The notes below the pieces were generated by a model. That model did no database searches. It was not told the DNA's origin and saw nothing but the letters and a program-made list of their open reading frames with translations. Shown here in pieces: positions 11,260-39,344 of a stretch of 64,000 nt of DNA. Position 1 is the stretch's first letter. Each line of letters begins with the position of its first letter. The stretch covers positions 529-64,528 of the forward strand of contig JBHPCA010000002.1 in the NCBI GenBank assembly GCA_042576225.1. Direction: 5' to 3'. A program made the translations under genes and the position numbers. The stretch comes from Candidatus Babelota bacterium. Lineage in GTDB: Bacteria; Babelota; Babeliae; Babelales; Vermiphilaceae.

Positions 11260-11350
11260 AATTAGTGTATAGCTATTTGGATCACAATAGTGTATATATT
11301 AATAGATATAATTAAAAATAAGTATTATACGGTTATTATGGGTGATTATT

Positions 11351-12553
11351 ATGAAACATAGAAAAGTAGCAACCAATCCAATTCACACTCCCAAAACGGC
11401 TTTGCTAGGCGTACACGCACCTTACAACCGGATCAAAAACATACAATCCTACTATGAGGAGTTTGTTAATCTAGTCAGATCAAACGAGCTTGCTCATGAT
11501 GAAGAAGTATACATGAAAATAAGGGATGTTAACCCGGTATATTTTTTGACTAAGGGAAAACTTCAGGAGCTAAAGGATTTTTGCGAAAAAAACGAGATAG
11601 AGCAACTTATCATATCAGAGCCATTATCGTCTCAACAAGAAAAAAATCTAAGTGATTACCTTGGATGCAACGTTTGCGACAGAACACAACTGATATTAGA
11701 GATTTTTGAAAAACATGCTCATTCTGCCGAAGGTAAAACCCAGGTAGAAATTGCTATGCTCAGACACCAAAAAACTCGCCTCGCAGGCAAAGGAATTCAC
11801 ATGTCTCAGCAAAGCGGTATTACAGGTAAAATAGGTGGCCCAGGTGAAACAGCAAAAGAAAGAGAAACCCGAGATATAAACCAACAGATATCTACATTAA
11901 AAAAGAGATTAGAAAAATTAAAAAAAGTAAGAGAAACACAACGAAAAAACAGATTTAGAACCAATGTTCCCAATATATGCCTCATCGGCTACACAAACGC
12001 TGGAAAATCAACAATCTTAAATACTTTGACAAAAAGCAAGGTCCTTGCTGAAGACAAATTATTCGCCACATTGGACACAACAACACGAGAGCTTTACATT
12101 GGCGGCAAAAAAAAGGGAATATTGTCTGACTCTGTTGGGTTTATTCAACAGCTTCCACACAATCTCATCGACGCATTCAAATCTACGTTAGACGAACTCC
12201 AATATGCAGATCTTCTACTGCATGTCATAGACATATCTGATCCAAACTGGGAAATGCACACACGAATTGTTAATGATATTTTGCAAGATTTAAATATAGA
12301 AAAAGATATTCTTTACATCTTCAATAAATCTGACAAAATAGATGGCATAATACCAAAACCCCTATTCGATACTAAGCCAGATATTGAACAAGATAGTGAG
12401 CCTCATGACTCAGAAAGCAACCTTTTGCTTGAGCAGGTCAAGAGATATAACCCTTACGTTTTGACATCGGCAAAGTCCAAAGATGGGGTTAAAGATCTTG
12501 TAAATTATTTATCAACCTGGAAAAGAAGCAACAAACAAAAAAATAAGGGATAA
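11351..12553 (+). CDS. hflX: GTPase HflX
   Basis: HflX N-domain, then G motifs GYTNAGKST, DTTT, SDSVGF and NKSD. The track ORF starts at GTG 11342; ATG at 11351 is preferred. Confidence 0.88.
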   Translation: MKHRKVATNPIHTPKTALLGVHAPYNRIKNIQSYYEEFVNLVRSNELAHDEEVYMKIRDVNPVYFLTKGKLQELKDFCEKNEIEQLIISEPLSSQQEKNLSDYLGCNVCDRTQLILEIFEKHAHSAEGKTQVEIAMLRHQKTRLAGKGIHMSQQSGITGKIGGPGETAKERETRDINQQISTLKKRLEKLKKVRETQRKNRFRTNVPNICLIGYTNAGKSTILNTLTKSKVLAEDKLFATLDTTTRELYIGGKKKGILSDSVGFIQQLPHNLIDAFKSTLDELQYADLLLHVIDISDPNWEMHTRIVNDILQDLNIEKDILYIFNKSDKIDGIIPKPLFDTKPDIEQDSEPHDSESNLLLEQVKRYNPYVLTSAKSKDGVKDLVNYLSTWKRSNKQKNKG

Positions 12554-12555
12554 AT

Positions 12556-12981
12556 ATGAAAAAAACAACAATCACTCTCTTTTCACTATATTTCTTGCTT
12601 TATTTTACCAATACCGCAGCCATGTACACATATGAAACTTATAAAACAAAAACCAAACAAGTAACTCAAGCAAACTATCCTCGCTTTTATAGAATTTATG
12701 AAAAAAGTAAAAATAATAAAACAGCAAAAAAATTCTTTATAACCATTAGTTTTAAAGAAAAGTTTATTGAAGATTTGAAACGCATATCAAAAGACAAAAA
12801 CGTTGCAAACATAAAAAAAATCAATCCACACTTATTGCAGTACATTATAAAAAAAGACGACGAAGAACTAGCTTCAAATATCGATAAGGCTCTATTGATA
12901 ATAGAAACACGCAAACTCTTTAAAAAGAAAAACAAAGAAAGCTCCAAACCTTTATGTATTTGCAAATCTTTTTTCAAATAA
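12556..12981 (+). CDS. hypothetical secreted Lys-rich protein
   Basis: Signal-like N-terminus MKKTTITLFSLYFLLYFTNTAA. No recognisable domain. Confidence 0.4.
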   Translation: MKKTTITLFSLYFLLYFTNTAAMYTYETYKTKTKQVTQANYPRFYRIYEKSKNNKTAKKFFITISFKEKFIEDLKRISKDKNVANIKKINPHLLQYIIKKDDEELASNIDKALLIIETRKLFKKKNKESSKPLCICKSFFK

Positions 12982-13120: not shown

Positions 13121-15268
13121 ATGAAGCACAAAAAGGGAGTCTTCTCACTCGCAACTTGCATATTTTTTGCATCAATTATTTTTTCTTTGCAAACTTACTG
13201 TAGCGAAGGTGAAAATAAACAGTGTTACGAGCTAGCCGAAAAATATAAAAAGGAAGGCAATAATTCACAGGCAATCTATTATTATAAAAAAGCCTTGGAA
13301 CATAAACCAAATCATTTGAGAACAATATTTGCGCTTGGAAGTCTTTTATACTCTGAAAGTAAATTTAATGAAGCACTTGAGTGCTTTGAAAAAGCCGAAA
13401 CGCTATACCCAAACTCTGCACAAATATACTTTAATCAATCTCTATGCCATATGCAGAAAAAAGATACCGACAAAACAATAGAATGCTTAAAAAAAGCAAT
13501 AGAGAAAAACCCGGACTATAAAAAAGCCTATAATCAACTTGGTTCAATTTTACATAAAAATAAACGGGATAAAGAGGCAATAGAATATCTTAAAAAATCT
13601 TTAGATAAAACCCCAAATGCATACAACACAATATTTTTACTGGCTAAATGCTTACGAAATGTGGATAATCTGGAATCTGCAAAAGAATATTTTATAAAAG
13701 CTCATAAACTAAAGCCTGAAAGCACTATTGCCATGATAGAACTTGCAAATACCTATAACATGTTGCACCAGCCAGAAAAGGCTGCTGAGCTGTACAAAAA
13801 AGTGTTAGAAATAAACCCTAATCAAATGGCCACAAAATATAATCTCGGTTATACACTTAAAAAAATGGGGCGTGTAGATGAAACAATTAAAATTTACAAA
13901 GAAATTTTAAAAGAAAAACCTGATTACGCACAGGCACAGTTTAGCCTTGCTTTGGCCTACCTTGTTTTAGGCGACTTTCAACAGGGCTGGGAAACATATG
14001 AATGGCGATGGAAGGCATATAAAGAAAACAAAAGAACATTTGACAAGCCTATGTGGGATGGCAGCAATCCTCGAGGCAAAACCATTTTATTATATGCAGA
14101 ACAAGGCCTTGGTGACACATTCCAATTTGTTCGATACGCAAAGCTACTTAAAAATATGGGCGCCACTATTATTGTTGCCGCACAAAGACCTGTCGTAAAA
14201 CTTTTACAACTTTGTAAATATATAGACGTAGTAGTCCCAAGAGGGGGGACTTTACCAAATTTTGATTACTACATTCACTTAATGAGTTTACCGTTACAAT
14301 TTAAAACAACCGTTGACACGGTCCCTGATGAAATCCCATATCTATATGCTAACCCAGAGTTAATAGATTACTGGAAAAAAGAACTTGGACCGGACAAAAA
14401 CTTTAAAATTGGTATCTGTTGGCAAGGAAATAAGGGGTACAGAAGCCAAGCATTAAAACATGCCGTTGCTGCAAAATCTATGCATGCCAGCATATTCAAA
14501 CCTTTGGCAGAAATTCCTGGAGTAAGTCTTTATTGTCTTCAAAAAGTAAACGGCGAAGAGCAGCTGAAAGAAATAGATTTTGAAATACACACGTTTGGCC
14601 CCGATTTTGATAAATCACACGGTAGATTTATGGACACTGCTGCGTTAATTAAAAACCTTGATCTAATAGTTTCTGTTGACACTTCAGTATGTCATGTCTC
14701 AGCGGCATTGGGAGCGCAAGTCTGGACGATGCTTCCAAACCCTGCTGACTGGAGATGGATGCTGAAAACAAACAAAACTCCTTGGTATCCAAACATGAGA
14801 CTATTTAGACAAAAAGAGTATGGTACTTGGGAAAACTTAATGCAGGCAGTAAAACAAGAAGTTTGCAAATTGGTAGGCGAAAAAAACGTGAAAGCTAGTA
14901 GCATTGATGACAAAAGTAAAATTGAGGACTTGCCATTCCAGGAAACCCTCGATAAACTAATAATCTTAAAAATAAAATATGATGACTCCCAAGATCCAAA
15001 CATTGGAAAAGAACTTGAAAAAACAGAAGATCAACTAAGAAAAATGTTACTTTTATACAAGGCAAACACAGACGAACTAGACACTCTAGCTGAAAAACTT
15101 TATGATATCAACTCGCAGCTCATCTATATGGACAAACAAATTTCAAAACTAGAAGACAAATCTGTTTTAAACCCAGATTTCATAGACCTCACAAAACGTG
15201 TGCTATTAATAAATAAACTAAAACAACATGTAAAAAAAGAGATAAAAGGTATCATAAAATCTAAATAA
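13121..15268 (+). CDS. TPR-repeat / GT9-like glycosyltransferase paralog 1 with C-terminal DUF6165-like module
   Basis: Signal peptide MKHKKGVFSLATCIFFASIIFSL and multiple TPR units. GT-B-like domain motifs: GLGDTFQFVRYAK, FKIGICWQG, YCLQK, FGPDFD..GRFMDTAALIKNLDLIVSVDTSVCHVSAALG, DWRW, TPWYPNMRLFRQ. An extra tail of about 120 aa follows. Confidence 0.75.
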   Translation: MKHKKGVFSLATCIFFASIIFSLQTYCSEGENKQCYELAEKYKKEGNNSQAIYYYKKALEHKPNHLRTIFALGSLLYSESKFNEALECFEKAETLYPNSAQIYFNQSLCHMQKKDTDKTIECLKKAIEKNPDYKKAYNQLGSILHKNKRDKEAIEYLKKSLDKTPNAYNTIFLLAKCLRNVDNLESAKEYFIKAHKLKPESTIAMIELANTYNMLHQPEKAAELYKKVLEINPNQMATKYNLGYTLKKMGRVDETIKIYKEILKEKPDYAQAQFSLALAYLVLGDFQQGWETYEWRWKAYKENKRTFDKPMWDGSNPRGKTILLYAEQGLGDTFQFVRYAKLLKNMGATIIVAAQRPVVKLLQLCKYIDVVVPRGGTLPNFDYYIHLMSLPLQFKTTVDTVPDEIPYLYANPELIDYWKKELGPDKNFKIGICWQGNKGYRSQALKHAVAAKSMHASIFKPLAEIPGVSLYCLQKVNGEEQLKEIDFEIHTFGPDFDKSHGRFMDTAALIKNLDLIVSVDTSVCHVSAALGAQVWTMLPNPADWRWMLKTNKTPWYPNMRLFRQKEYGTWENLMQAVKQEVCKLVGEKNVKASSIDDKSKIEDLPFQETLDKLIILKIKYDDSQDPNIGKELEKTEDQLRKMLLLYKANTDELDTLAEKLYDINSQLIYMDKQISKLEDKSVLNPDFIDLTKRVLLINKLKQHVKKEIKGIIKSK
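14917..15265 (+). other. DUF6165-like coiled module fused to glycosyltransferase paralog 1
   Basis: ETLDKLIILKIKYDD...LAEKLYDINSQLIYMDKQI...FIDLTKRVLLINKLKQHVKKEI aligns by eye with GELVDKITILQIKSENI...LATKLLVINKQLWDIEDDI...FIQLARSVYYTNDERCAVKRKIN in ORF 32349..33071. Confidence 0.55.
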
Positions 15269-15291
15269 ACAAATAGTTTTAAGGTCACATA

Positions 15292-16839
15292 ATGCAAAAG
15301 AAACTATTTTTTATCATAATTTTACTACCAACTATTTTGGGTGCGCATCAACAAAACTCGGCCCCCCACAATTTTTTTGAAAAAATTTTAAACCAAGCAA
15401 ATACACACTTTCATACACAAGAATTTGACCAAGCACTCACCTGTTATAAAAAGGCCCTTGAGATACAACCCAGCAGCGTAGAAAGCATGCTGAAAATCGC
15501 CCAAATTCTAGAGAAAAAAAATGAGCCACAGAAGGCAATAATTTACTATAAAAAAATTGTTGCCCTAGCACCAAAGTTTACATATGGGTTTTTAAAGCTA
15601 GCAAAACTACACCATATATTAAAACATTACCACGAAGCTCTCGCTTACTACAAAAAAGTTGATATGTTAAAACCAAATGACACCGCCATAATTTTTAGAA
15701 TAGCGAGTATTCAAAACGCTTTGGGAAAATGCAAAAAAGCCGCGAAAAATTTTTTAAAAATAGCAAAAATTGAACCTAAGAATATTTCAGCCCTTTACAA
15801 CACTGGTTATTCTTTAAAAGTTATGGGCGCTATTGATATGGCTATAGAACTTTATGATCAGGTATTGAAAATTAAACCAGATTATGATCTTGCCCTATAC
15901 GCAAAAGCACTAGCACTTTTATACAAAGGTGATTTTGAAAGAGGCTGGCCACTATACTCGCTTAGACTGATAAAAGAGAAGAGAAACGCACCAAAGCTAA
16001 GAAATTACATAAAAAACAATCAACTCAAAGACAAAATAATATTTCTTACCCCTGAGGGGGGATTTGGCGATACAATTCAATTTATAAGATATGCCGAAAA
16101 ACTTCATAAAAAAGGAGCTATAGTCATCGTTGCCGAAAGAAAACCTCTCATAAAACTACTGGCAAACTGTCCCTACATCGATAAACTAATTTCTACTGGC
16201 AAACGCCCAAATTTTTTCCATGATTACGCAAGCATAATGAGCCTGCCTGCAATATTTGAATCAAAAGAAGAAGATATTCCTAAACAAGTTCCATATCTTT
16301 TCCCTGACAAAAAACTGGAGAAAAAATGGCGTAAACATTTTGAAAATAATAACGCATTTAAAATTGGCTTGTGTTGGGAAGCTGACCTTAAAAATGACAA
16401 GTCTCGCCTTGCTTGCGCACACAGAAGCATACCGCTCGAAAAATTTGAAAAACTTTCCCATATTCCAAATATAGAGTTCTACAGCCTGCAAAAAAGTACC
16501 GGCTCTGATCAAATAAAAATTTTACCGGACCATTTCAAGGTAAAAACTTTTGGCCCTGACTTTGATAATTCCGCCGGCCCTTTTATGGACACCGCAGCAA
16601 TCATGAACCAACTTGACCTGGTCATAACAGTTGATACATCTGTGGCACATCTGGCAGGAGCCTTAGGGATACCAGTTTGGGTAACGCTCCCATACAACAC
16701 AGACTGGCGATGGATTGCAGGCAGAAAAGATTCCCCCTGGTATCCAACTATGAGACTTTTTAAACAAAAAGAGGCCCTTAATTGGGACCATGTTGTCGAC
16801 AATATATATTACGAATTAAAACAAAGAGTAGGCTCATGA
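15292..16839 (+). CDS. TPR-repeat / GT9-like glycosyltransferase paralog 2
   Basis: Signal peptide MQKKLFFIIILLPTILGA and TPR units. Motifs: GFGDTIQFIRYAEK, FKIGLCWEA, YSLQK, FGPDFD..GPFMDTAAIMNQLDLVITVDTSVAHLAGALG, DWRW, SPWYPTMRLFKQ. Confidence 0.75.
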   Translation: MQKKLFFIIILLPTILGAHQQNSAPHNFFEKILNQANTHFHTQEFDQALTCYKKALEIQPSSVESMLKIAQILEKKNEPQKAIIYYKKIVALAPKFTYGFLKLAKLHHILKHYHEALAYYKKVDMLKPNDTAIIFRIASIQNALGKCKKAAKNFLKIAKIEPKNISALYNTGYSLKVMGAIDMAIELYDQVLKIKPDYDLALYAKALALLYKGDFERGWPLYSLRLIKEKRNAPKLRNYIKNNQLKDKIIFLTPEGGFGDTIQFIRYAEKLHKKGAIVIVAERKPLIKLLANCPYIDKLISTGKRPNFFHDYASIMSLPAIFESKEEDIPKQVPYLFPDKKLEKKWRKHFENNNAFKIGLCWEADLKNDKSRLACAHRSIPLEKFEKLSHIPNIEFYSLQKSTGSDQIKILPDHFKVKTFGPDFDNSAGPFMDTAAIMNQLDLVITVDTSVAHLAGALGIPVWVTLPYNTDWRWIAGRKDSPWYPTMRLFKQKEALNWDHVVDNIYYELKQRVGS

Positions 16840-18383
16840 AGCGACCTTATGCATTCTTAAGTTTGTTTATTTTTGCCCATATGTGCATAAAAACAAGCTC
16901 AACAACTCTCTCTCAGACGTTCACAGAGGCAAACAACTTACTTATTAATAAAAAATATACACAAGCAATAGAACTGTATAAAAAAATTATAGCGCTAAAA
17001 CCGGATGTCCCAGGATTATATTTTAACGCAGGCTATGCATGTAAACTTGCAAAAAATTACCCCGATGCAATAGCATATCTTTCCAGGGTAGTAGAAATCA
17101 AACCAAACTGGACAAAGGCCTATAGTCTTTTAGGTGAAATATACCTGGCAATAGACGAATGTGAACTTGCTTTAAAGCATTTGTATAAAGCTATTAAACT
17201 AAACCCTCAAAGTGAAAATGACCATATAAATTTTGCCTCAACACTCATAAGACAAAAAAATTACCCAGAAGCAGAAAAGTACCTCAAAAAATTTGTAAAA
17301 AAATTCCCTAAAAATACAATTCTCACGTATAACCTTGCCTACATCCTTAGAATACAAGGCAAAGAGAAAGAGGCTATCCCTTACTATTTACAAGCACTTG
17401 AAACCGATCCAAGCTTTGATACTGCTCGCTTAGGAATAGCAAAAGCCTATCTTGCAACCGGACAACTTAAAAAAGGCTGGAACTATTTTGAATATCGCTT
17501 TCAAAACAACAAAATATCACACAAAAAATTTGATCATCATACTCTTGTTCCTGCTGACCTTACAAATAAAACGGTATTATTAAAATATGAGTGGGGCCTT
17601 GGTGATATGATGCAATTTATCAGATACGCAAAGTTGATCAAAAGCTATGGCGCAACTATTTTGGTAAGCATACAAAAACCATTACAAAAATTATTTTCTC
17701 TCTGCCCTTATATAGACAAAATTGTTAATGTTGGCGACCGCGTTCCAAAAATCGATTACAAAATTCCAATATTAAGTTTGCCGCTACTTTTCAATACCAC
17801 ACTGGAAACTATACCTGCAAATATCCCATATCTTTACGCAGATGAAAAACTAATCTCTCTCTGGAGAAATAAACTGTCACACAACAAAAACTTCAAAGTT
17901 GGTATATGCTGGCATGCAAAGCCTATATTCTTAGAAAATAACTATTTAACTAGACGCACCGTACCACTAAAAGATTTCGAACCCCTTGCAAACATAAAAA
18001 ATACAACTTTGTACAGCCTACAAAAAATATATGGACTTGAAGAATTGGATAATCTCCCTGATAATTTTAACATAGCTACTTTTGGCCCAGACTTTGATGA
18101 AACAAACGGAAGATTTATGGACACAGCAGCGCTCATTGAAAATTTAGACCTGGTCATAACTGCTGATACATCAATTGTCCATATTGCAGGAGCACTGGGA
18201 AAACCAGTTTGGATATTGGTACCCTATGTTGCTGAATGGCGATGGTTACAAAAAAGCAATCGCACACCATGGTATCCAAAAGCTCGTCTTTTTAGGCAAA
18301 AGCAGCCATCTGACTGGACCCATGTAATCAAAGAAGTAACAAAAGAACTCGAAAAACATATAAATAATAACCCTCAAAAGTAA
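16836..18383 (+). CDS. TPR-repeat / GT9-like glycosyltransferase paralog 3
   Basis: ATG at 16836 overlaps the previous TGA (ATGA) and gives signal peptide MKRPYAFLSLFIFAHMC. Motifs: GLGDMMQFIRYAK, FKVGICWHA, YSLQK, FGPDFD..GRFMDTAALIENLDLVITADTSIVHIAGALG, EWRW, TPWYPKARLFRQ. Confidence 0.75.
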   Translation: MKRPYAFLSLFIFAHMCIKTSSTTLSQTFTEANNLLINKKYTQAIELYKKIIALKPDVPGLYFNAGYACKLAKNYPDAIAYLSRVVEIKPNWTKAYSLLGEIYLAIDECELALKHLYKAIKLNPQSENDHINFASTLIRQKNYPEAEKYLKKFVKKFPKNTILTYNLAYILRIQGKEKEAIPYYLQALETDPSFDTARLGIAKAYLATGQLKKGWNYFEYRFQNNKISHKKFDHHTLVPADLTNKTVLLKYEWGLGDMMQFIRYAKLIKSYGATILVSIQKPLQKLFSLCPYIDKIVNVGDRVPKIDYKIPILSLPLLFNTTLETIPANIPYLYADEKLISLWRNKLSHNKNFKVGICWHAKPIFLENNYLTRRTVPLKDFEPLANIKNTTLYSLQKIYGLEELDNLPDNFNIATFGPDFDETNGRFMDTAALIENLDLVITADTSIVHIAGALGKPVWILVPYVAEWRWLQKSNRTPWYPKARLFRQKQPSDWTHVIKEVTKELEKHINNNPQK

Positions 18384-18395
18384 AGGATAAACTTC

Positions 18396-20171
18396 GTGCA
18401 AAAAAACAAAAACACCGAAAAAATAATTTTTAACTATGCAATCCCAGCCTTGACCATAGCCTCAATTATATTTTTAGGCTCTGCGATAAAAGATAGGTTT
18501 TCAAAAAGCATTGATCAACAAAAAACTGCCCTCTTGCAAACTAGCCAAACTGGGGACAATCTAGAAACCTTAGTCAATCTAGATTATCTTCAAAAGAAAA
18601 TAGAAATTGCAAGCGAGCTCACAAAAAATGGAGCAACCAAAAAAGCGATAGAGTATTATAAAACACTTTTACAATATGAGCGCACTTTTTCGATAATTCA
18701 TTTTAATATCGGCAAACTTTACTCAAATATAAAAAACTTCAAAAAAGCAGAGTACCATTTTAAAAAATCGATCGAACAAAGCCCCAAAAACTCAAATTCT
18801 CATACATTCTTAGGTGTAGCATTACGAAATATGGAACAATATGACGAATCAATAAAACATCTCAAAATAGCTATAAAACTTACTCCAAATTATTTTGACG
18901 CTAATCTACAACTAGGAAAAACGTATCTAGATATGGGAAAAACAATAAAAGCAATAAAATACAGTTATAAAGCAGCAAAACTATCACCAAAGAGCATATA
19001 CCCACATTTAAATATCGCTTATTCATATAACAAACAGGGAAACCTTGAGAAAGCCGTCGAAATTTATCGACAAGTCATTAAAATTGATCCTCAATGCGCC
19101 AATGCACATTACAATCTTGGCTACTCCCTAAAGATTTTAGGAAAACTAAAAGAGGCCGTTACCTTCTTGGACAAAGCAATTTCACTAAAACCCGATTATT
19201 TAGACGCTCACATTGCAAGATCACAATCTAAGATTGCATTACAAAACTTCGATGAGGGTTGGGATGAATATGAATGGCGCTGGGGATTATTCGGCATGGA
19301 TCCACATAAATACAAAGCTGGTATGTGGGACGGCTCCAACATCAAGGGCAAGACTATATTGCTAAGAACAGAACAGGGACTTGGTGACACTATGCAATTC
19401 GTACGTTTGGCAAAACAGGTAAAAGCAATGGGTGCGAAAAAAGTTATCTGTAAAGTACAAAAACCTCTAGTAAAACTGCTTTCAAACTGCGACTTTATTG
19501 ACAAAGTAATACATGATCTTGACGATGCAGGAAAGTATGATCATTATGCCCACCTTATGAGCTTACCAAGAATTTTAAAAATGCAACCTGACACCATCCC
19601 TGCAGAAATCCCATACTTCAAAGCTGATCCAAAATTGGAAAAAGAGTGGCGTGAAAAACTCCAAAAAGATAAAAACTTTAAAATTGGTATCTGCTGGCAT
19701 GTTGACCCAGTTCATGAGGAAACAAAATCGCCCTGGTCACTCCGGTCGGTCAACTTAAAACAGCTCAAGCCTTTTGCAAAACTAAAAAATGTTACCTTCT
19801 ACAGCTTACAAAAACTTCAGGATCAACAACAACTTGCACTCGTTCCTGAGGGGATGAACTTCCAACATTTCGGCCCTGATTTTGACAAGAAAAATGGTAG
19901 CTTCATGGACAGCTCAGCAATTATAAAAAGCTTAGATCTTGTTGTCACAGTTGATACCTGCGTTGCTCACCTTGCCGGCGCTTTGGGCAAAGAAGTATGG
20001 ATGCTACTTCCATATTCACCAGATTGTCGCTGGTACCTCAACACTGATAAAACTCCTTGGTATCCAACCATGACACTCTTTAGACAGGATAAACCACAAA
20101 GTTGGGATAGTGTAATAAATAAAATCGCAACATCACTTGAAAAAGAGATTAAAAAACATAAAACAACGTAA
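18396..20171 (+). CDS. TPR-repeat / GT9-like glycosyltransferase paralog 4
   Basis: GTG start and N-terminal anchor IIFNYAIPALTIASIIFLGSAI, with TPR units. Motifs: GLGDTMQFVRLAK, FKIGICWHV, YSLQK, FGPDFD..GSFMDSSAIIKSLDLVVTVDTCVAHLAGALG, CRWY, TPWYPTMTLFRQ. Confidence 0.75.
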   Translation: MQKNKNTEKIIFNYAIPALTIASIIFLGSAIKDRFSKSIDQQKTALLQTSQTGDNLETLVNLDYLQKKIEIASELTKNGATKKAIEYYKTLLQYERTFSIIHFNIGKLYSNIKNFKKAEYHFKKSIEQSPKNSNSHTFLGVALRNMEQYDESIKHLKIAIKLTPNYFDANLQLGKTYLDMGKTIKAIKYSYKAAKLSPKSIYPHLNIAYSYNKQGNLEKAVEIYRQVIKIDPQCANAHYNLGYSLKILGKLKEAVTFLDKAISLKPDYLDAHIARSQSKIALQNFDEGWDEYEWRWGLFGMDPHKYKAGMWDGSNIKGKTILLRTEQGLGDTMQFVRLAKQVKAMGAKKVICKVQKPLVKLLSNCDFIDKVIHDLDDAGKYDHYAHLMSLPRILKMQPDTIPAEIPYFKADPKLEKEWREKLQKDKNFKIGICWHVDPVHEETKSPWSLRSVNLKQLKPFAKLKNVTFYSLQKLQDQQQLALVPEGMNFQHFGPDFDKKNGSFMDSSAIIKSLDLVVTVDTCVAHLAGALGKEVWMLLPYSPDCRWYLNTDKTPWYPTMTLFRQDKPQSWDSVINKIATSLEKEIKKHKTT

Positions 20172-20206
20172 TAACACAAAACAAAAACTCGTGCGAAAAA
20201 TAGATT

Positions 20207-20239
20207 AAAAAAAGGCCCCGGAAATCCGGGGCCTTTTTT
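20207..20239. terminator. bidirectional intrinsic terminator between the convergent glycosyltransferase and beta-helix blocks
   Basis: Perfect 8-bp GC stem ggccccgg (20214-20221) / ccggggcc (20226-20233) with loop aaat. Flanked by an A-run (20207-20213) and a T-run (20234-20239). Confidence 0.8.
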
Positions 20240-20254
20240 AAGTCTATTGCTAGC

Positions 20255-21922
20255 TCATACATTTGCAACTTTGTTTTTCTCAACAACGCATTTGTTCACC
20301 GTCGTAGCCAATTTTACAATTTCCACTCGTCCAGTATCTTTCTTCTCAACCTTCGTAATCCCTGCAACAGCAACAAATTTACCACAATTTGACCATTCAT
20401 TAAAAATAGCAACATTCAGTCCATCTTTAAATTCAAAATTCGTCAAAGGCGTCAAGAATGGACTCAATAATGAATTGAACGCGTAGAGTTTATTAGAGCC
20501 AGCACTTGATGTTAACAATGTCTTGCCATCTGGTGACCAGCTTACAGCAGTTAAATTAGCATCATTGCCTGCAAAAATTTCAGTCAACGTATCTGCCGAG
20601 GCCAGATACTCATAAACCCTTGGAAGATCATTAGTGCCGGTAGCTACAATACAATATTTTTCACGGGATGCTATTGGATTCCATTTTGCCTTTGCAATGC
20701 CTGCTCCTCCTATGCTTACGCTCGCCAGACCCGTCAATGGTATAGTTTTGGCAACATGCATCATCGATGTACTTTTATCACCATACACAACAAACTTATC
20801 ATCTGGTGCTACATCAAGCATTATTAGGTCATTTGTATCACCCAATAATTTACGCTCTGCCAAAACAAGCTTTATTCCATTGAAAGACAATCTCACAAGT
20901 TTCGCCGACTCAGGGCCCCCAGCAACATTCAAATATGAGTAATTATAAGCATAATTACTCCCCCCATCACTATTACCGGTAATAACAAAATTTTTACCTT
21001 CAGTTGTCGCAAAAAGTTGCTTTCCATCATGCGACCAAGCTAACCGGAGAATCCGATCTGGTGCGCTTGTTGTACCTGCAGACGTCGGATGATTGCCAAA
21101 ATAAATTGCTTCCCCAGAAGATAGAGTAGACGCAACTTCATAAGTACGATTGCCAGGAAGAGGTGTGCCATCAAGGAACTCAGCAACTTTGGTTCCTTTA
21201 TTATCCGCCGCCCTAATCGTAGAAACTGGATTATATGCACTTACCATCTTTACACCTGTACGTACACCAGAAACCAATTTCAATGATCCACGATCAAACT
21301 TGTATACCAAAACTTCTTTATCTTTATCTGCGGTACTAACAAAGGTTATAAATTCTGAAGAAACAAGTTCATAACTTCCATCTTCTTTCCTTTTACCCTT
21401 ATAAACTTCAACCGGACCTAAATTATTTGTCCCAACGGCCAAGTACTGGCCGTCTGGTGACCATGCAACGGCATTAACCGCTCTATTGAACGAAACAGTT
21501 TGAACCTCGTAAAGTTTGGCGCCGTCAAATCTTAATATTCGCAATTTATAATCTTCTTTACCAATTGTTGAAATAGCTAAATAACTGCAATTTGGAGACC
21601 AATCAAAATCTGTTAACAATTTACCGGGTTCTGCTTGATACGCCGTTATAAACTTGGTTTTCGAAAGCTTCATGTCAAGACCAACACCCTTGCGGCAATT
21701 TGATACTCTCAAATCTTTTAAGATAACTCTTTTTGTTCCTGATTTCGACGCATCATTTTTTATAATCACATCTTCCACATTTTCGTCTATGACAACAAGT
21801 GGATCTGAGCCACTACTACCAGATGACATTATCGTTTGCCCATTCAGGTTGGAAGAAATAAAAAAATAAAAAAATATTACAAAAAATGTAAGCTTCTTAT
21901 TACACAAAAAACTTTGCTTCAT
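20255..21922 (-). CDS. truncated paralog of the beta-helix/beta-propeller family (propeller retained, helix core and C-tail missing)
   Basis: 555 aa with a signal-like N-terminus and repeated W-S-P-D/N-G/C blade motifs. Collinear with residues about 95-130 and 300-765 of the 851-aa neighbour. Stops right after VVEKNKVANV, where the paralogs continue. Could be a decaying copy. Confidence 0.6.
   Translation of the reverse strand: MKQSFLCNKKLTFFVIFFYFFISSNLNGQTIMSSGSSGSDPLVVIDENVEDVIIKNDASKSGTKRVILKDLRVSNCRKGVGLDMKLSKTKFITAYQAEPGKLLTDFDWSPNCSYLAISTIGKEDYKLRILRFDGAKLYEVQTVSFNRAVNAVAWSPDGQYLAVGTNNLGPVEVYKGKRKEDGSYELVSSEFITFVSTADKDKEVLVYKFDRGSLKLVSGVRTGVKMVSAYNPVSTIRAADNKGTKVAEFLDGTPLPGNRTYEVASTLSSGEAIYFGNHPTSAGTTSAPDRILRLAWSHDGKQLFATTEGKNFVITGNSDGGSNYAYNYSYLNVAGGPESAKLVRLSFNGIKLVLAERKLLGDTNDLIMLDVAPDDKFVVYGDKSTSMMHVAKTIPLTGLASVSIGGAGIAKAKWNPIASREKYCIVATGTNDLPRVYEYLASADTLTEIFAGNDANLTAVSWSPDGKTLLTSSAGSNKLYAFNSLLSPFLTPLTNFEFKDGLNVAIFNEWSNCGKFVAVAGITKVEKKDTGRVEIVKLATTVNKCVVEKNKVANV
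20260..21675. repeat. segmental duplication, copy 1 (pairs with 22224-23640)
   Basis: Constant offset of 1964 nt. In the 120 nt compared by eye (20521-20640 vs 22485-22604) there are 10 mismatches. Boundaries are approximate. Confidence 0.7.
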
Positions 21923-21990
21923 AATTCATCCCTTTTTTGTTTTTAATTAGACAGCTCTACTCACAGTTTACTATTCACCATGCAATCCCA

Positions 21991-24546
21991 CTACTGCACG
22001 CACCCACATTCGCAAATTGCAGGAATGCAACTGCATGGACAACCAGCGCAGCCTTCATTTGCATACAAATTATCAAGAAGGCCAGGAAAACCCATCAAAT
22101 TATATCGATGTCTTGCGTACACACCTTCACTGTATGGCACACCGCTACAACAAACCATGTTGGCATCTATCAAGTTACAACACCCACCGCCAAAGATGCC
22201 AATGCCGCAAAAACCACCGCACACATTTGCGATCTTGTTTTTCTCAACAACACACTTGTTAACCGTTGTAGCCAATTGAACAATTTCCACTTGCCCTGTA
22301 TCTTCCGCCTCAACCGTCGCAAGCCCCGCAATAGCAACAAATTTACCACAACTTGACCAACCGTTAAAAGTCGCAACATTCAGTCCATCTTGAAATTCAA
22401 AATTCGTCAAAGGCGTCAAAACTGGACTCAATGATGGATTGAACGCATAAAGCTTATTAGAACCAGCCCTTGATGTTAACAATGTCTTGCCATCAGGAGA
22501 CCAGTTTACAGCAGTCAAATTAGCATCATTGCCTGCAAAAATTTCAGTCAACGTATCTTCTGAAGCCTGGTACTCATAAACCCTTGGAAGATCATCAGTG
22601 CCGGTAGCTACAATACAATATTTTTCACAGCATGCAATTGGATTCCACTTTGCCTTTGCAATGCCTGCTCCTCCTATGCTTACGCTCGCAAGACCCGTCA
22701 ATGGTATCGTTTTAGCAATATGAATCATCGAGGTACTTTTATCACCATACATAACGAATTTATCATCTGGTGCTACATCAAGTATTATTAAATCATTCGT
22801 ATCACCCAATAATTTACGCTCTGCCAAAACAAGTTTTGTTCCATCAAAAGACAATCTCACAAGTTTTGCCGACTCATCAATAGCTGGATCAACATCCAAA
22901 TATGAGTAATCATAAGCATAATTACCCCCGCCATCAGTATTGGTAATAAGTAAATCTTTACCTTCAGTTGTCGCAAAAAGTTGCCTTCCATCATGCGACC
23001 AGGCTACCCGAAGAATCCTATCTGGTGCGTTTGTTGTACCTGCAGGTGTCGGATGGTTACCAAAATAAGTTATTTCCCCAGAAGATGGAATAGGCACAAC
23101 TACAGGAGTAAGATTACCAGGAAGAGGTGTGCCATCAAAGGACTCCAAAAGCGCAGTACCAGCATTGTCTGCTACTCTAATCGTAGAAACCGAATCATAT
23201 GCACTTACCATCTGCACACCTGTACGTGCACCAGAAACTAATTCCAATGATCCACAATCAAACTTATATACTAAAATTTCCTTATCTTTATCTGCAGTAC
23301 TAACAAAGGTTATAAATTCTAAAGAAGCAGGCCCATAACTTCCATCATCTTGTCTCTCGCTTATATACACTTCAACTGGGCCTAAATTATTTGTCCCAAC
23401 AGCCAAGTACTGGCCATCTGGGGACCATGCAACTGCATTAACCGCTCTATTGAACGAAATAGTTTGAACCTCGTAAAGTTTTACGCCGTCAAATCTTAAT
23501 ATTCGCAATTTATAGTCGTCTGTGTCAATTGTTGCAATAGCTAAATGCTTGCAATTTGGGGACCAATCTAAATCTGTTAATTTTTTACCCGGTTCTGCTT
23601 GATATGCTGTTATAAACTTGGTTTGTGAAAGCTTCATATCCAGATAAATACCATATGCATTACCCCAGCTTGCAGTCTTGATAGAATCTATGCAGCAGTT
23701 TATAATTTTTGATTCCGTTTCTGGCGTATCATCTTTGTAACCAAACCTAAAACCGGCTGCTTTTGTGCAAAAATCACTATTTACACATTTTGCAATATCT
23801 TCTACAAAACATTCATAAAACAAATTATCTAGACCCCCAAGAGAGATAAATCCATACGCACTGCCTACTTGATTAGTATTACTTACCCCTAATACTTTAC
23901 ACTGCTCAAATTTATTATATTTACAACTATCTAAATCAAAGCCAGTATATTCACAACAACATACAACTGTATCTTTGAAAATACATTTTTCTGCATAATC
24001 CAAATCAACTGCAATGCTACAAGTTTTTATGTGGCAATTTTGGACCCTACAGCAGACAACCTCACTTCCTGACTCACCTGCAAAATCAATACCTTTGTAG
24101 CAATCTGATATTCTCAAATTTTTTAAAATAACTCTTTTTGCTCCTGCTTTCAACTGTATACCAGTATCAATACAGTTCCCAACAATTGCACCATTTTTTA
24201 TAATCACATCTTCTACGTTTTCATCTATTACAACCAATGGATCTGAACTGCTACTGGATGCCGTTATCGTATGCCCATTCAGATCAATTATCACTTTATT
24301 TGCAGTAACCAAAAGCGTTGCACTTGTGATATTCTCATAGAGCCCATACGAACCATCTTTGTCTATCACATTGTTGGCAGTGTCTTTGATAATATTGTGC
24401 ACAGGATCCATAGAGTGTAACATAGCCAACAAACGACTACCATTTGTAAGATCCATACATGCCGCAGAAAAAACCCTGGAAGAAAAAGATGAAAAAAGTA
24501 GCAAGGCAAACACCATTACCCTACTATAGGGAAACTTGTACTTCAT
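21991..24546 (-). CDS. secreted Cys-rich parallel beta-helix protein with embedded beta-propeller (paralog 2, Cys-rich tail)
   Basis: 851 aa starting with the MKYKFP signal peptide. PbH1-like turns with a Cys ladder (VVCCRVQNCHIKTCSIAVDLDYAEKCIFKDTVVCCCEYTGFDLDSCKYNKFEQCKV). Blades DWSPNCKHLAIAT, VAWSPDGQYLAVGT, VAWSHDGRQLFATT, VNWSPDGKTLLTS. Returns to helix turns at NKIANVCGGFCGIGIF. Tail ends CAGCPCSCIPAICECGCVQ. Confidence 0.7.
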   Translation of the reverse strand: MKYKFPYSRVMVFALLLFSSFSSRVFSAACMDLTNGSRLLAMLHSMDPVHNIIKDTANNVIDKDGSYGLYENITSATLLVTANKVIIDLNGHTITASSSSSDPLVVIDENVEDVIIKNGAIVGNCIDTGIQLKAGAKRVILKNLRISDCYKGIDFAGESGSEVVCCRVQNCHIKTCSIAVDLDYAEKCIFKDTVVCCCEYTGFDLDSCKYNKFEQCKVLGVSNTNQVGSAYGFISLGGLDNLFYECFVEDIAKCVNSDFCTKAAGFRFGYKDDTPETESKIINCCIDSIKTASWGNAYGIYLDMKLSQTKFITAYQAEPGKKLTDLDWSPNCKHLAIATIDTDDYKLRILRFDGVKLYEVQTISFNRAVNAVAWSPDGQYLAVGTNNLGPVEVYISERQDDGSYGPASLEFITFVSTADKDKEILVYKFDCGSLELVSGARTGVQMVSAYDSVSTIRVADNAGTALLESFDGTPLPGNLTPVVVPIPSSGEITYFGNHPTPAGTTNAPDRILRVAWSHDGRQLFATTEGKDLLITNTDGGGNYAYDYSYLDVDPAIDESAKLVRLSFDGTKLVLAERKLLGDTNDLIILDVAPDDKFVMYGDKSTSMIHIAKTIPLTGLASVSIGGAGIAKAKWNPIACCEKYCIVATGTDDLPRVYEYQASEDTLTEIFAGNDANLTAVNWSPDGKTLLTSRAGSNKLYAFNPSLSPVLTPLTNFEFQDGLNVATFNGWSSCGKFVAIAGLATVEAEDTGQVEIVQLATTVNKCVVEKNKIANVCGGFCGIGIFGGGCCNLIDANMVCCSGVPYSEGVYARHRYNLMGFPGLLDNLYANEGCAGCPCSCIPAICECGCVQ
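22224..23640. repeat. segmental duplication, copy 2 (pairs with 20260-21675)
   Basis: See copy 1. Covers the propeller-coding part of the 851-aa gene. Confidence 0.7.
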
Positions 24547-24592
24547 TAGGTCTCCTTTTAATTTAAGTTATTAATATTTAAATAATTATCAA

Positions 24593-26701
24593 TTAATATG
24601 GGGGTATTGAAACGTTATAATGTAATTGATCAATGCCTACAAGACCACAATACCAAACATTGAGCACTTTTTGTGAGAAACTCAAGTCACATTCGTAACA
24701 GATATTTTTCAATATCGAGTTACAATCACTAGAGCCAAATATTCCAATACCGCCTAGACCACCAGTAACATTTGCAACTTTATTGTTATACACAACACAC
24801 TTAGTAGGAGCAATACCAACTTCAATAATATTGAAGTTAGGAATAATTGATCCATCATCGCCACCAAATACCAAGAAATTACCTGACGGAGACCAATCAA
24901 GACCGCCTTGGCTAACCTGTATACCAAGTGATTTTGAGTACACAAGAGAAATTACCGGACTTACGGATGGATCAAACTTGTATACACCAACAGTTCCATT
25001 AGTTGCAAATACTGCAAAATAGTTACCATTAGGCGCCCATTTTATTCTCAATACAGTATCATCAAAAAGCGCTGCGCCTCCAAATACCAAATCTATCCCA
25101 TCAAATGAATAAACATTTATATTTGCAGTTGCCCCAGTTCCAACAGCAACAAGATAATATTTGCCATTACATGCAATTGGACACCACTGCACATCATTTA
25201 TCCCTGTCAAACCGGTTGATGTGTCTGATGCAACTTGTACAGTTGAAAATGGTATATGCGTTTTCCAATCTCTTACAAACAAGTCTCCAGTTGCGTATGA
25301 TCCAAAGGCTATAAATTTCTCATCTGGAGTAATATCTGGATTTGTTAAATCAGTTAACCCCGTGTCAATTCCTGCACCTGAATTTGCAACATTTGTCAAA
25401 GTACCATCAACCTTGTAAACATCAATAAAAGCTCCGCCCCTGATATACACAACATATTTTCCGCTTCTAAACCAGACAGGATCGGAAACATCTACATCTG
25501 GGTTATCACCCATTATCAGCCCATAAAGCGTATCATACACAACAACTTCATCGTCTTGCCCTGAAAGCGCCCCTATAGCCAAATACCTTCCAGTAGGATC
25601 CCACTCAATATGTCGCTTGTCGTTAGAGGTGGTAGTTAAACTACTAACCTCATGCCATGTCTTACAATTAAAGTCTAATATTTTTACAGGTCCAGCACTT
25701 ATTCCCTCTGAAGCCTCACCTGAGAAAACAATCGCTATCTTATCCCCAAGGGGCGACCATGAAATATCTGCTATAGAATCTTCAAAATTACTTAATATTG
25801 CCGGGCACCCTGATGCAGGGTCTGCAATAAGTGTGCTTTTGAATACCGACTCCAGAATTATACCATACGCATTACCCAACTCTGCGCCGGTTAAAGAATC
25901 TACCAGGCAATTTATAATCTTTGACTCTGTTTCACCTGCATCCTCCCCTGTTGAGGCAAATCTAAATCCTATAGCATCTTTCCCAAATTCACTTGCTGAT
26001 TTGTAAATTCCCTCTGCCATACACTCAAAGAAAAGATTATCTTGACCACTTATGGCAGAAAAACCTACGGCCTGCTTATCTGCAAAAGAACTTCCAGTTC
26101 TAATAGCTTTACACTTTTTTATTTTGTTGTACTTGGATTTTGTAAAAACAAAGCCACCTTCTGTACAACAACAACTTTCACAATTTTCAAACACACAATT
26201 CATTGCAAAATCAATTGAAAAACCAAAAGAAGAATCTGCTACAAAACAATTTGTAACTTTACAACATCGAACATATTTATCAATTGCACCAGAAAAAGCT
26301 ATACCAGTAGAACAGTTTGCTACATTGAGATCTTGAATAACAATATTCTGCGCGCTGTCATCAATTAATACACCAGTATTAACCTGGTCGCTACCAAAAA
26401 TTGATCCATTCTGTATAACAATATTTTTTTGACCTTCACCTACATTAAACACAGAAGTCTTTGCAGCATTCCCTGATACAGTAAAACCTTTAAGGTTTAT
26501 CAAGACATTATCTGCATTAACCGTTATGTCCCCTGTTATATTTTCTATAACATGATATGAACCTGGTTCTGTGATTATCGTTGTCCCGTTTTTAATTATT
26601 TGATGCGCAGGACCAACACCAAATAGGTTTATCTGGCTTATCTGAGAAAATATCGTAGAACAAAAAGATAAAAGAAGAAGTATAGGTATTTTGTACTTCA
26701 T
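24593..26701 (-). CDS. secreted Cys-rich parallel beta-helix protein with embedded beta-propeller (paralog 3, SIPPY C-terminus)
   Basis: 702 aa starting with the MKYKIP signal peptide. Helix turns (VRCCKVTNCFVADSSFGFSIDFAMNCVFENCESCCCTEGGFVFTKSKYNKIKKCKA) and the family motif ETESKIINCLVDS. Blades ISWSPLGDKIAIV, IEWDPTGRYLAIG, IKWAPNGNYFAVF, LDWSPSGNFLVFG. Ends NKVANVTGGLGGIGIF...VSIPPY. Confidence 0.7.
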   Translation of the reverse strand: MKYKIPILLLLSFCSTIFSQISQINLFGVGPAHQIIKNGTTIITEPGSYHVIENITGDITVNADNVLINLKGFTVSGNAAKTSVFNVGEGQKNIVIQNGSIFGSDQVNTGVLIDDSAQNIVIQDLNVANCSTGIAFSGAIDKYVRCCKVTNCFVADSSFGFSIDFAMNCVFENCESCCCTEGGFVFTKSKYNKIKKCKAIRTGSSFADKQAVGFSAISGQDNLFFECMAEGIYKSASEFGKDAIGFRFASTGEDAGETESKIINCLVDSLTGAELGNAYGIILESVFKSTLIADPASGCPAILSNFEDSIADISWSPLGDKIAIVFSGEASEGISAGPVKILDFNCKTWHEVSSLTTTSNDKRHIEWDPTGRYLAIGALSGQDDEVVVYDTLYGLIMGDNPDVDVSDPVWFRSGKYVVYIRGGAFIDVYKVDGTLTNVANSGAGIDTGLTDLTNPDITPDEKFIAFGSYATGDLFVRDWKTHIPFSTVQVASDTSTGLTGINDVQWCPIACNGKYYLVAVGTGATANINVYSFDGIDLVFGGAALFDDTVLRIKWAPNGNYFAVFATNGTVGVYKFDPSVSPVISLVYSKSLGIQVSQGGLDWSPSGNFLVFGGDDGSIIPNFNIIEVGIAPTKCVVYNNKVANVTGGLGGIGIFGSSDCNSILKNICYECDLSFSQKVLNVWYCGLVGIDQLHYNVSIPPY

Positions 26702-26748
26702 TAGGTCTCCTTTTAATTAAAAGTTAGTGTTACACTATAAACTACACC

Positions 26749-29304: not shown

Positions 29305-29393
29305 TAGGTCTCCTTTTAATTAAAAGTTAGTATTGCATCATAAATCACACAAAACTATACACTACTACAAAATGCTCGCACAGTACTAAATTC

Positions 29394-32348: not shown

Positions 32349-33071
32349 ATGAAGTACACAAATAAAATAATTGCATTATCCGTGCTGTGTGCAATATACG
32401 CACAGACATCTTTTAGTTGCGACGAATGCGATAGAATAAAACAACAATATGATAATCCACCAAGCTCTATTGAACAACCAAAAGGCTGTTCCTGCTCACA
32501 ACCAAAACCCCCAAAACCAAAAAGTGAAGATGAAGAGAAAGGCTGCTCTTGTTCTCAACCAAAACCCCCAAGACCAAAAAGCGAAGATGAAGAAAAGGGC
32601 TGCTCCTGCTCACAACCAAAACCACCAAGACCAAAGGGATGCTCCTGCTCGCAACCAAAACCACCCCGCCCAAAAGACGACTCAAAAGTAACCGCTGAGA
32701 TCGCAGTTGGTGAGTTAGTAGACAAGATTACCATCTTGCAAATCAAATCAGAGAATATCAAAGATACAGCAAAGCTAGAAAATATTCATAGAGAGCTTGA
32801 GGCACTTGGTGAAACATTAGACGAACGTGTAGAGAAATCTCCTGAGCTTGAGGACCTTGCAACCAAACTTCTTGTAATTAACAAGCAACTTTGGGATATA
32901 GAGGACGACATCAGAGACAAAGAACGTGCCAAAGAATTCGATACCGAATTTATTCAACTAGCTCGAAGCGTTTACTACACAAATGATGAAAGATGCGCTG
33001 TAAAAAGAAAAATCAATGATCTTACAGGATCGAGACTTCAAGAAGAAAAATCTTATAAAGATTATAAGTAG
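32349..33071 (+). CDS. secreted protein: Cys/Pro/Lys tandem repeats plus C-terminal DUF6165-like domain
   Basis: Signal peptide MKYTNKIIALSVLCAIYAQTS and four KGCSCSQPKPP(K/R)PK repeats. The C-terminal 120 aa (GELVDKITILQIK...INKQLWDIEDDIR...LARSVYYTNDER...EEKSY) looks like the DUF6165 family as I recall it. Confidence 0.7.
   Translation: MKYTNKIIALSVLCAIYAQTSFSCDECDRIKQQYDNPPSSIEQPKGCSCSQPKPPKPKSEDEEKGCSCSQPKPPRPKSEDEEKGCSCSQPKPPRPKGCSCSQPKPPRPKDDSKVTAEIAVGELVDKITILQIKSENIKDTAKLENIHRELEALGETLDERVEKSPELEDLATKLLVINKQLWDIEDDIRDKERAKEFDTEFIQLARSVYYTNDERCAVKRKINDLTGSRLQEEKSYKDYK
32481..32675 (+). repeat. in-frame tandem repeat (two 57-nt units, then two 39-nt units)
   Basis: Encodes KGCSCSQPKPPKPKSEDEE, KGCSCSQPKPPRPKSEDEE, KGCSCSQPKPPRP and KGCSCSQPKPPRP. 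The units differ mostly at synonymous sites. Confidence 0.85.
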
Positions 33072-39229: not shown

Positions 39230-39344
39230 TAAAAGAGAGAGGTTAACCGGTATTATTGGAGTTATTTTCAAATAATGCGCCCTTTAAGTTATTTGTTTAT
39301 ATTTTTAATTGTTTTTAACTAAACCAAATATGGAGGAAAATAAT

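Follow-up and report, generated by a model that had tools for sequence, protein, structure and literature searches.

Four tandem genes form one transcription unit

The window analysed here is a stretch of 64,000 nucleotides from a Candidatus Babelota bacterium (contig JBHPCA010000002.1, positions 529 to 64,528), and our subject is a block of four open reading frames (ORFs) that lie in tandem on its + strand at 13121-20171. Each encodes a hydrophobic N-terminus, tetratricopeptide repeats (TPRs) and, at the C-terminus, a domain (C-domain) that resembles glycosyltransferase (GT) family 9, GT9. The original prediction, made from the letters of the sequence, had described four same-strand genes encoding 715, 515, 515 and 591 aa, and the ORFs lie exactly where it placed them.

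Gene 1 (13121..15268, 715 aa) begins with a signal-peptide-like segment of residues 1 to ~27 (13121..13201; MKHKKG, then VFSLATCIFFASIIFSL, then QTYC↓SEG, where the arrow marks the putative cleavage site). It continues with ~7-8 TPRs, a GT9-like GT-B domain at aa 288-591 and, fused to the latter, a DUF6165-like helical module at aa 584-714, both given as the limits of hidden Markov model (HMM) matches; the module is encoded by 14870..15262. Gene 2 (15292..16839, 515 aa) has a predicted signal peptide (MQKK followed by LFFIIILLPTILGA), ~6 TPRs and a GT9-like domain at aa 217-514. Gene 3 (16836..18383, 515 aa from its ATG) has a predicted signal peptide (MKRPY followed by AFLSLFIFAHMCI), TPRs and a GT9-like domain at aa 213-515. 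The N-terminus of gene 4 (18396..20171, 591 aa, GTG start) is a hydrophobic segment of 22 residues that is likely a signal anchor; a polar linker of ~45 aa, TPRs and a GT9-like domain at aa 287-590 come after it. The GC content is 32-40%. Gene 3 and gene 1 are each 100% identical to a database protein (P0001 and P0121, respectively), both named 'tetratricopeptide repeat protein [Candidatus Dependentiae bacterium]', and the named matches among the closest homologs are mostly from Dependentiae or Babeliales.

The gaps between genes 1-4 measure 23, -4 and 12 nt, the negative value being the predicted ATGA stop/start overlap of genes 2 and 3, which is present at 16836-16839. A purine-rich motif of the Shine-Dalgarno (SD) type lies 6-12 nt 5' of all four starts, for example AAAGGGG before gene 1 and TAAAGGA before the GTG of gene 4. 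A symmetric, strong hairpin at 20208..20239 (AAAAAAGGCCCCGG-AAAT-CCGGGGCCTTTTTT) forms a bidirectional intrinsic terminator at the boundary between gene 4 and its convergent neighbour and ends both; no terminator-like site on the + strand was found inside the four-gene block. Because of the tight spacing, the SD-like motif at each start and the single terminator, we read genes 1-4 as one transcription unit.

The C-terminal domains are modelled as GT9-like GT-B folds

The original prediction had recognised the C-domain as GT9-like, that is, related to heptosyltransferases. At the level of sequence the match is marginal. Against Pfam PF01075 (Glyco_transf_9; gathering cut-off 22 bits), gene 1 (22.7/24.1 bits) and gene 3 (22.7/23.6 bits) scored above the cut-off and gene 2 (19.0/19.9 bits) and gene 4 (18.6/20.2 bits) below it, with an alignment spanning only ~30 residues of the donor loop. 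NCBIfam holds no specific model for the family, and its heptosyltransferase models matched far below threshold, at 18-20 bits versus cut-offs of at least 135. Pfam scans of the four proteins returned no GT41 family. A sequence search of the PDB with the C-domain, as a single sequence or as a four-sequence profile, gave no match, and a search of PHROGs gave only an unannotated family (phrog_36377).

Structure models place the domain among GT9 enzymes. The AlphaFold2 (AF2) model of full-length gene 2 (mean predicted local distance difference test score, pLDDT, 94.6; predicted template modelling score 0.89) contains ~12 TPR helices, equivalent to ~6 repeats, and after them two Rossmann-like halves. 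In the model of gene 1 aa 289-715 (pLDDT 91.7) the chain ends in four long helices. When the gene 1 model was compared with the PDB using Foldseek, ranks 1-9 were all GT9 enzymes, including 3TOV (Veillonella, E 1.6e-8), 1PSW (WaaF), 2H1H (WaaC), 6DFE, 2GT1 and 2H1F, and these were followed by TibC. The GT9 matches had E values of 1.6e-8 to 1.6e-5 and target template modelling (TM) scores of 0.52-0.55. Phage proteins in BFVD annotated as GT9/RfaF or as TPR proteins matched better still (E 1e-19). Full-length gene 2 gave SPY and OGT as top Foldseek matches (E 1e-13), together with designed TPRs, in agreement with the predicted resemblance to the TPR plus GT-B layout of OGT and of FlmG (PMC7591256). 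We rejected the full-length search as a classifier of the catalytic domain, as the TPRs dominate the match (TM score ~0.3), and used the TPR-free model instead.

Profile comparison agreed with the structural ranking. In hhalign, the family C-domain matched WaaC/WaaF/WaaU with a probability of 94.7% (E 6e-8). The G(L/F)GD motif aligned to WaaC Asp13 and the VDT(S/C)xxH motif to Asp261-His266, in a numbering checked on the E. coli K-12 sequence. The equivalents of Asp13 in genes 1-4 are Asp332/260/257/331, those of Asp261 are Asp520/448/444/520 and those of His266 are His525/453/449/525. All three are invariant in the four genes and, across 76 homologs, nearly so; no residue could be assigned to WaaC K192. 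By modelled fold and by motifs the C-domain is a GT9-like GT-B domain, and its strict Pfam membership is borderline.

The marginal sequence match could also be read as a sign that the GT-like domain is a degenerate binding module and that the proteins are non-catalytic, secreted TPR scaffolds of the kind seen in eukaryote-like repeat effectors; nor did we find a demonstrated activity for any family member. We regard this as highly improbable, given that the Asp13, Asp261 and His266 equivalents and ~70 other columns are invariant across anciently split paralogs and that the models of the fold are of high confidence.

The four genes are ancient paralogs kept in order

The four proteins are 34-39% identical over their full length and 40-46% identical in the ~300-aa C-domain, where more than 70 columns are invariant across all four. 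By these values the genes are clearly homologous, far beyond chance. Pfam TPR families matched all four N-terminal halves (E 1e-20 to 1e-39), with 5.5-8 TPRs in each. The predicted common architecture of hydrophobic N-terminus, TPRs and C-domain holds, with a C-domain of ~300 aa and not the 330 aa first given. The motif set that had been called invariant is present and is better described as near-invariant, with substitutions in gene 1 (YCLQK, SAALG), gene 2 (GFGD, RYAE, RLFKQ) and gene 4 (FMDSSA, DTC, CRW, TLFRQ).

Each paralog is closer to its orthologs in other Dependentiae arrays (41-60%) than to its siblings in the operon (34-39%). Identity to orthologs elsewhere is 45-60% for gene 1, 42-52% for gene 2, 44-53% for gene 3 and 41-42% for gene 4. 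A recent tandem duplication was ruled out on this ground. The relative order 1<2<3<4 is retained across the Dependentiae arrays, orthologs of gene 1 are the first gene in every such array examined, and the gene 4 orthologs in the loci L087 and L088 (578-586 aa) have hydrophobic N-termini too. Judged from these comparisons, the four genes are ancient, non-redundant paralogs in a conserved order.

The TPR regions of the paralogs are only 24-33% identical, compared with 40-46% in the GT domains. This greater divergence of the TPR parts is as expected if each enzyme recognises a different acceptor, and it suggests four different acceptors or four ordered steps.

Predicted export signals were added in the Dependentiae clade

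Signal peptides were called with our own simple heuristic, based on n-region charge, core length and cleavage sites. A Sec signal is expected to have a positive n-region, an h-region of 7-15 residues (longer in anchors), a polar c-region and small residues at -3 and -1. Genes 1-4 have n-region charges of +2 or +3 (+3 in gene 1) and hydrophobic cores of 17, 14, 13 and 22 residues, respectively. Candidate (-3,-1) cleavage sites were found in genes 1 and 3, and one in gene 2 (LGA↓H) by eye. In the AF2 model of gene 2, helix 2-18 is of low confidence and lies outside the TPR fold. The 22-residue core of gene 4 and its polar stalk of ~45 aa make a signal anchor likely rather than a cleaved signal. 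The hydrophobic, export-like N-termini that had been noted on all four proteins as unusual are borne out by this heuristic, which reads them as signals or anchors and not as cytoplasmic helices.

Across the window, 20 of the 38 ORFs of at least 150 aa were flagged as signal- or anchor-like. One housekeeping protein, MurC (4856-6253), was a false positive; Ffh, HflX, UvrD, a PNPase-like protein, TrpRS and two large ORFs at 51104-59570, presumably RpoB and RpoC, were negative. Since the housekeeping proteins other than MurC were negative, AT-rich composition alone does not explain the N-termini. A composition artefact or a wrong start was ruled out on the same evidence and on the SD-like motifs at all starts.

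The closest full-length homologs, mostly from Dependentiae, are signal-peptide-like in 170 of 206 cases (~83%). In the 184 homologs with a recognisable core, the median core length is 13 residues (interquartile range 11-16) and only 20 have a core of 19 or more, indicating signal-peptide rather than transmembrane length. In other phyla the heuristic flagged 7 of 73 homologs, and by eye only two of these were convincing, a Babeliales locus (L001) and one labelled only 'bacterium' (L010). Among representatives with several catalytic modules, 16 of 144 were signal-peptide-like. Homologs outside the Dependentiae begin directly at the TPR, typically with M..AL..A..HHQAGRL..AE.IYRQIL; those of Planctomycetes, Proteobacteria, Cyanobacteria and Nitrospirota lack a hydrophobic N-terminus, whereas those of Dependentiae almost always have one. 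Because the homologs in other phyla start directly with the TPR, the family is, on this comparison, ancestrally cytoplasmic, and the predicted export signal was added in the Dependentiae clade. Signal peptides have been reported on 44% of C. destructans coding sequences (PMC6561590), so the feature belongs to the lineage and not specifically to the operon locus.

The N-termini could instead be cytoplasm-facing tethers, either as N-out/C-in anchors or because the segment is not translated or not functional, leaving the catalytic domain in the cytoplasm. Such an arrangement would agree with the cytoplasmic location of homologs elsewhere and of nucleotide sugars, with the long core of gene 4 and with the MurC false positive. 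We think it improbable. The positive charge before the core in all four proteins predicts an N-in, C-out orientation, the median core in the homologs is too short to span a membrane, and the annotated starts are backed by SD motifs and tight coupling. The soluble DUF6165 partner described below has also gained the same type of N-terminus, followed by a Cys-/Pro-rich linker.

DUF6165 is a recurrent partner that also gained predicted signals

The ~120-aa DUF6165-like module at the C-terminus of gene 1 was absent from the earlier description. A stand-alone DUF6165 protein is encoded at 32349..33071 on the + strand (240 aa) and consists of a predicted signal peptide, four linker repeats and the DUF6165 domain at aa 106-240, which matched Pfam PF19662 with E 3.8e-8 and 33.6 bits (cut-off 27). 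The linker is made of four tandem Cys/Pro-rich repeats of the GCSCSQPKPPRPK(SEDEEK) type between the signal peptide and the domain. The gene 1 tail and this protein share 30% identity over 124 aa (E 2e-8); by itself the tail gave no match in Pfam at E <= 1. Searches with the DUF6165 domain gave chance-level coiled-coil matches only in the PDB and no meaningful match in PHROGs.

With an HMM built from the two sequences, 15 of 79 loci in other phyla (E 1e-5 to 2e-33) were found to carry the module, fused or adjacent to a GT gene, and one fused protein from Mesorhizobium carries the NCBI name 'DUF6165 family protein'. Going by this co-occurrence, DUF6165 is a recurrent partner module of the GT family across phyla, which is a new lead on what the family does in free-living bacteria. 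Stand-alone DUF6165 proteins in other phyla are bare, ~130 aa long, and start at a GEL(I/V)DKITILEIK motif, whereas those of Dependentiae have a signal peptide and a linker added. The L087 and L088 arrays contain DUF6165 genes that likewise have signal peptides. We take the joint gain of signals by both partners as the strongest internal support for a real relocation.

The family is widespread in bacteria and phages

The description of the family as widespread was amply confirmed: a profile of the four C-domains matched 43,277 clusters at 50% identity, 21,902 of them at E <= 1e-30, with giant proteins of 3-6 catalytic modules as the top matches. Sequence searches gave 2015 matches at E <= 1e-5 and 7086 at E <= 1e-10, and the named family members P0101, P0152 and P0185 are 45-57% identical. 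In a scan of GTDB species genomes the domain was found at 36-47% identity in Pirellulales, Gemmataceae, Azospirillum, Rhizobium, Xanthobacteraceae, Geobacter, Nitrospirota and cyanobacteria, and it also occurs on replicons of Azospirillum, Ralstonia and Burkholderia. Multi-module members carry 2-6 TPR-GT modules in series and reach ~3100 aa (P0229-P0378; loci L018, L025 and L066; L087 at 14516-20706), a layout in other phyla that the tandem genes of the window mirror. Phages too encode TPR plus GT9-like proteins (BFVD A0A6J5KP87 and A0A879R292); the phage matches, which include Synechococcus phage S-SRM01, had Foldseek E values of 1e-17 to 1e-19 and a root-mean-square deviation of ~3 Å.

Our literature searches on Dependentiae TPR glycosyltransferases, on DUF6165 and on Glyco_transf_9 combined with TPR found no work on the family, and no characterised member or tested function. 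The TPR plus GT9-like family is among the larger bacterial families without known function.

The array is a Dependentiae island between hflX and uvrD

In the window, hflX is followed by the four GT genes, and these by five genes of the beta-helix/propeller type; DUF6165, a gene for an ankyrin protein and uvrD come next, in this order. Related arrays were seen in other Dependentiae loci. In L082, ffh and hflX precede six tandem TPR-GT genes. L083, L084 and L085 have four GT genes each, with hflX upstream seen only in L084. L087 has hflX followed by at least eight GT genes with a DUF6165 gene in the middle of the array, some of its polypeptides containing 2-3 modules. L088 has eight GT genes and DUF6165, with uvrD ~3 kb downstream. 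The first array gene carries a DUF6165 tail in four of five arrays (L082, L083, L087 and the window); no such tail was found by the HMM on the first gene of L088, where DUF6165 is a separate gene. Nearly all array members have signal-like N-termini. By gene content and order, the ordered paralog array is a conserved Dependentiae island between hflX and uvrD.

The ORF directly upstream of the operon (12556-12981, + strand) encodes 141 aa, is rich in Lys, has a signal-like N-terminus and matched nothing in Pfam; it starts 3 nt past the stop of a 403-aa GTPase gene (11342-12553), presumed to be hflX. Convergent to the operon, the - strand at 20255-31910 encodes five tandem paralogs of 555-851 aa, each with a signal peptide, a right-handed, NosD-like beta-helix, a WD40/beta-propeller and a C-terminus rich in Cys. 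This C-terminus holds 22-38 Cys in the four long copies and 6 in the truncated 555-aa copy. The latter is 81% identical to residues 299-775 of the adjoining 851-aa copy, which points to a recent partial duplication. After the GT array, three beta-helix/propeller genes are present in L083 and one is visible in L084. We downgraded the beta-helix/propeller array as a dedicated substrate set, as it adjoins the GT array only in L083 and L084 and not in L082, L087 or L088.

Two further neighbours carry export-type N-termini. A 480-aa ankyrin-repeat protein (33265-34707, + strand) has a classic signal peptide (…LSSLQVNA↓ESPQ) and fits the secreted-ankyrin pattern of Babela and Chromulinavorax. A 350-aa protein (39309-40361, + strand) has a signal-like N-terminus, a TPR and, at its C-terminus, a MYND zinc finger (Pfam E 1e-12). 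MYND is typically a eukaryotic domain, and by its domain content this protein is a candidate host-directed effector. The signal-peptide ankyrin and MYND-finger proteins of the window make sense only in a eukaryotic cell.

Where the enzymes may act

The reading we favour, with a probability of roughly 45%, is that the operon encodes exported, TPR-guided GT-B enzymes that glycosylate host proteins with host nucleotide sugars. Genes 1-3 would be made with a Sec-type signal peptide and gene 4 with a signal anchor, so that the proteins leave the bacterial cytoplasm. The TPR domain would select the protein acceptor, and the GT-B domain would move the sugar from a nucleotide-sugar donor with an Asp as general base, as in GT9. 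Action would most likely follow release into the host cell by type II secretion or in vesicles, with host proteins as targets and host nucleotide sugars as donors. DUF6165, a four-helix module fused to gene 1 and present again at 32349, may be an accessory module of the same system. The export, cleavage, site of action, donor and acceptor of the four enzymes are what we infer from these features. We hold it rather doubtful that Sec and type II secretion carry the whole module, the ordered GT set together with DUF6165, into the protist to glycosylate distinct host proteins or to build a glycan stepwise.

Several published features of the lineage bear on this reading. Members of the Dependentiae (TM6) live obligately inside protists, as parasites or symbionts (PMC4776705, PMC4378268, PMC6561590), and their signal-peptide-bearing coding sequences include ankyrin proteins (PMC6561590). 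Of the 126 ankyrin proteins of Babela, 79 bear a signal peptide and were read as secreted into the amoeba, and no secretion system other than type II was found (PMC4378268, PMC4776705). The host-target reading leans on what is generally assumed for Dependentiae secretomes.

The location of the sugar donor is central to the choice between sites. To our knowledge, no periplasm contains a nucleotide-sugar pool, and we favour action in the host because the periplasm is without a nucleotide-sugar supply of its own. Protein glycosyltransferases with soluble donors act in the cytoplasm, and periplasmic ones use a membrane-anchored donor glycan (bioRxiv 10.1101/2023.12.03.569772). FlmG, OGT/SPY and TibC are all cytoplasmic, so an exported GT-B enzyme needs a source of donor, and the host pool is the obvious one.

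The same requirement also weighs against glycosylation of host proteins, as do several other points. A GT-B enzyme needs nucleotide sugars, so that it could work only on reaching the host or if host metabolites entered the periplasm. The donor of GT9 enzymes is typically ADP-heptose, which eukaryotic hosts do not make. No heptose-pathway genes were found among the annotated ORFs of the window. The GT9 sequence match is weak, with two of the four genes under the Pfam threshold, and the acceptor is not known for any family member. The core of gene 4 (22 aa), and partly that of gene 1 (17 aa), could be a membrane anchor. Given how common signal peptides are in Dependentiae, finding them is, by itself, weak evidence of a host target.

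An envelope-directed role is the nearest rival, and we consider it unlikely. The enzymes would be periplasmic or surface-located, some of them anchored (gene 4), and would either modify exported proteins of the bacterium itself with sugars or make a surface glycan in an envelope poor in lipopolysaccharide (LPS). The neighbouring signal-peptide beta-helix/beta-propeller proteins would be candidate acceptors, and nucleotide sugars would diffuse in from the host cytosol. Signal peptides lead first to the periplasm, and the gene 4 core is of anchor length. The five secreted beta-helix/propeller paralogs are convergent to the operon, and such genes stand there again in the closest contigs, L083 and L084. 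The GT9-like TibC glycosylates beta-helical autotransporters (PMC4358343), and most LPS genes are missing in Babeliales (PMC4776705). Against this role stand the lack of any known periplasmic nucleotide-sugar pool, the cytoplasmic action of TibC, and the absence of the beta-helix array beside the GT arrays of L082, L087 and L088; adjacency in L083 and L084 may be plain synteny of close relatives.

The family and its architecture are already known at the level of annotation. New are the documented change, within one phylum, of cytoplasmic into signal-bearing forms, the conserved, ordered paralog set and the DUF6165 partnership, on none of which a paper was found in our literature search. The array presents a natural experiment in which a whole module, including DUF6165, was refitted with predicted export signals and kept as an ordered set. 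It also provides a concrete, testable candidate for how uncultured parasites manipulate their protist hosts. If the enzymes act outside the cytoplasm, they would extend nucleotide-sugar-dependent protein glycosylation beyond the bacterial inner membrane.

Comparison with known glycosyltransferase systems

The closest relatives belong to the NCBI group named 'tetratricopeptide repeat-containing glycosyltransferase family protein', which is found in Planctomycetes, Proteobacteria, Cyanobacteria, Nitrospirota and phages. These share with the window proteins the architecture, the C-domain (36-47% identity), the motifs, the multiplication as tandem genes or as 3-6 modules, and the DUF6165 partner. 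In contrast, the members outside Dependentiae have no export signal, their DUF6165 is a bare domain of ~130 aa, and they sit among GT2, GT4 and methyltransferase genes for glycan biosynthesis.

WaaC and WaaF (PF01075; 2H1H, 1PSW, 3TOV) are the best structural matches and share the conserved Asp13 and donor-site VDTGxxH. The window proteins differ from them in having TPRs and a predicted signal peptide, and the sequence match is at threshold over ~30 residues; LPS is an unlikely acceptor. The BAHT enzymes TibC and Aah, the second structural group (E 1.7e-4), have a GT9-like GT-B fold that works on protein acceptors. These acceptors are beta-helical surface proteins, and beta-helix genes adjoin the window operon. 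Unlike the window proteins, BAHTs have no TPR, contain an iron-finger, are dodecameric and are cytoplasmic (PMC4358343). Only gene 2 matched the BAHT model TIGR04414 of NCBIfam, with 14.3 bits (E 0.015), far under the cut-off of 200 bits.

FlmG of Caulobacterales, compared by its description, has a TPR N-domain of ~310 aa and a GT-B C-domain of ~290 aa (PMC7591256). Its TPR domain binds the protein acceptor and its GT-B domain sets the donor specificity (PMC7591256; bioRxiv 10.1101/2022.03.25.485807). By analogy, FlmG would be the best functional template for the window enzymes. It differs from them in being cytoplasmic, in using CMP-pseudaminic or CMP-legionaminic acid as donor and in occurring only in Caulobacterales (bioRxiv 10.1101/2023.12.03.569772). 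No flagellar genes were found in the window. OGT and SPINDLY (GT41) likewise have a TPR superhelix followed by a GT-B catalytic domain. The catalytic domain of the window proteins is GT9-like and not GT41, with GT9 enzymes rather than OGT as its structural neighbours. OGT and SPY are nucleocytoplasmic.

The glycosylating effectors Lgt1-3, SetA, LtpM and SidI of Legionella, and NleB/SseK, act in the host on host proteins with host nucleotide sugars. Nearly all of them are GT-A enzymes, Legionella SidI being a GT-B-like exception (PMC8961657), and the window enzymes would extend this list if they act outside the cytoplasm. The known effectors differ in being delivered by type III or type IV secretion and in lacking a Sec signal peptide, a TPR-GT9 architecture and ordered paralog arrays. 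If export of the whole module into the host is the correct reading, no GT9-like, TPR-targeted glycosylating effectors would have preceded the window enzymes, which would also be the first glycosyltransferases among effectors to be arranged as a conserved multi-enzyme set.

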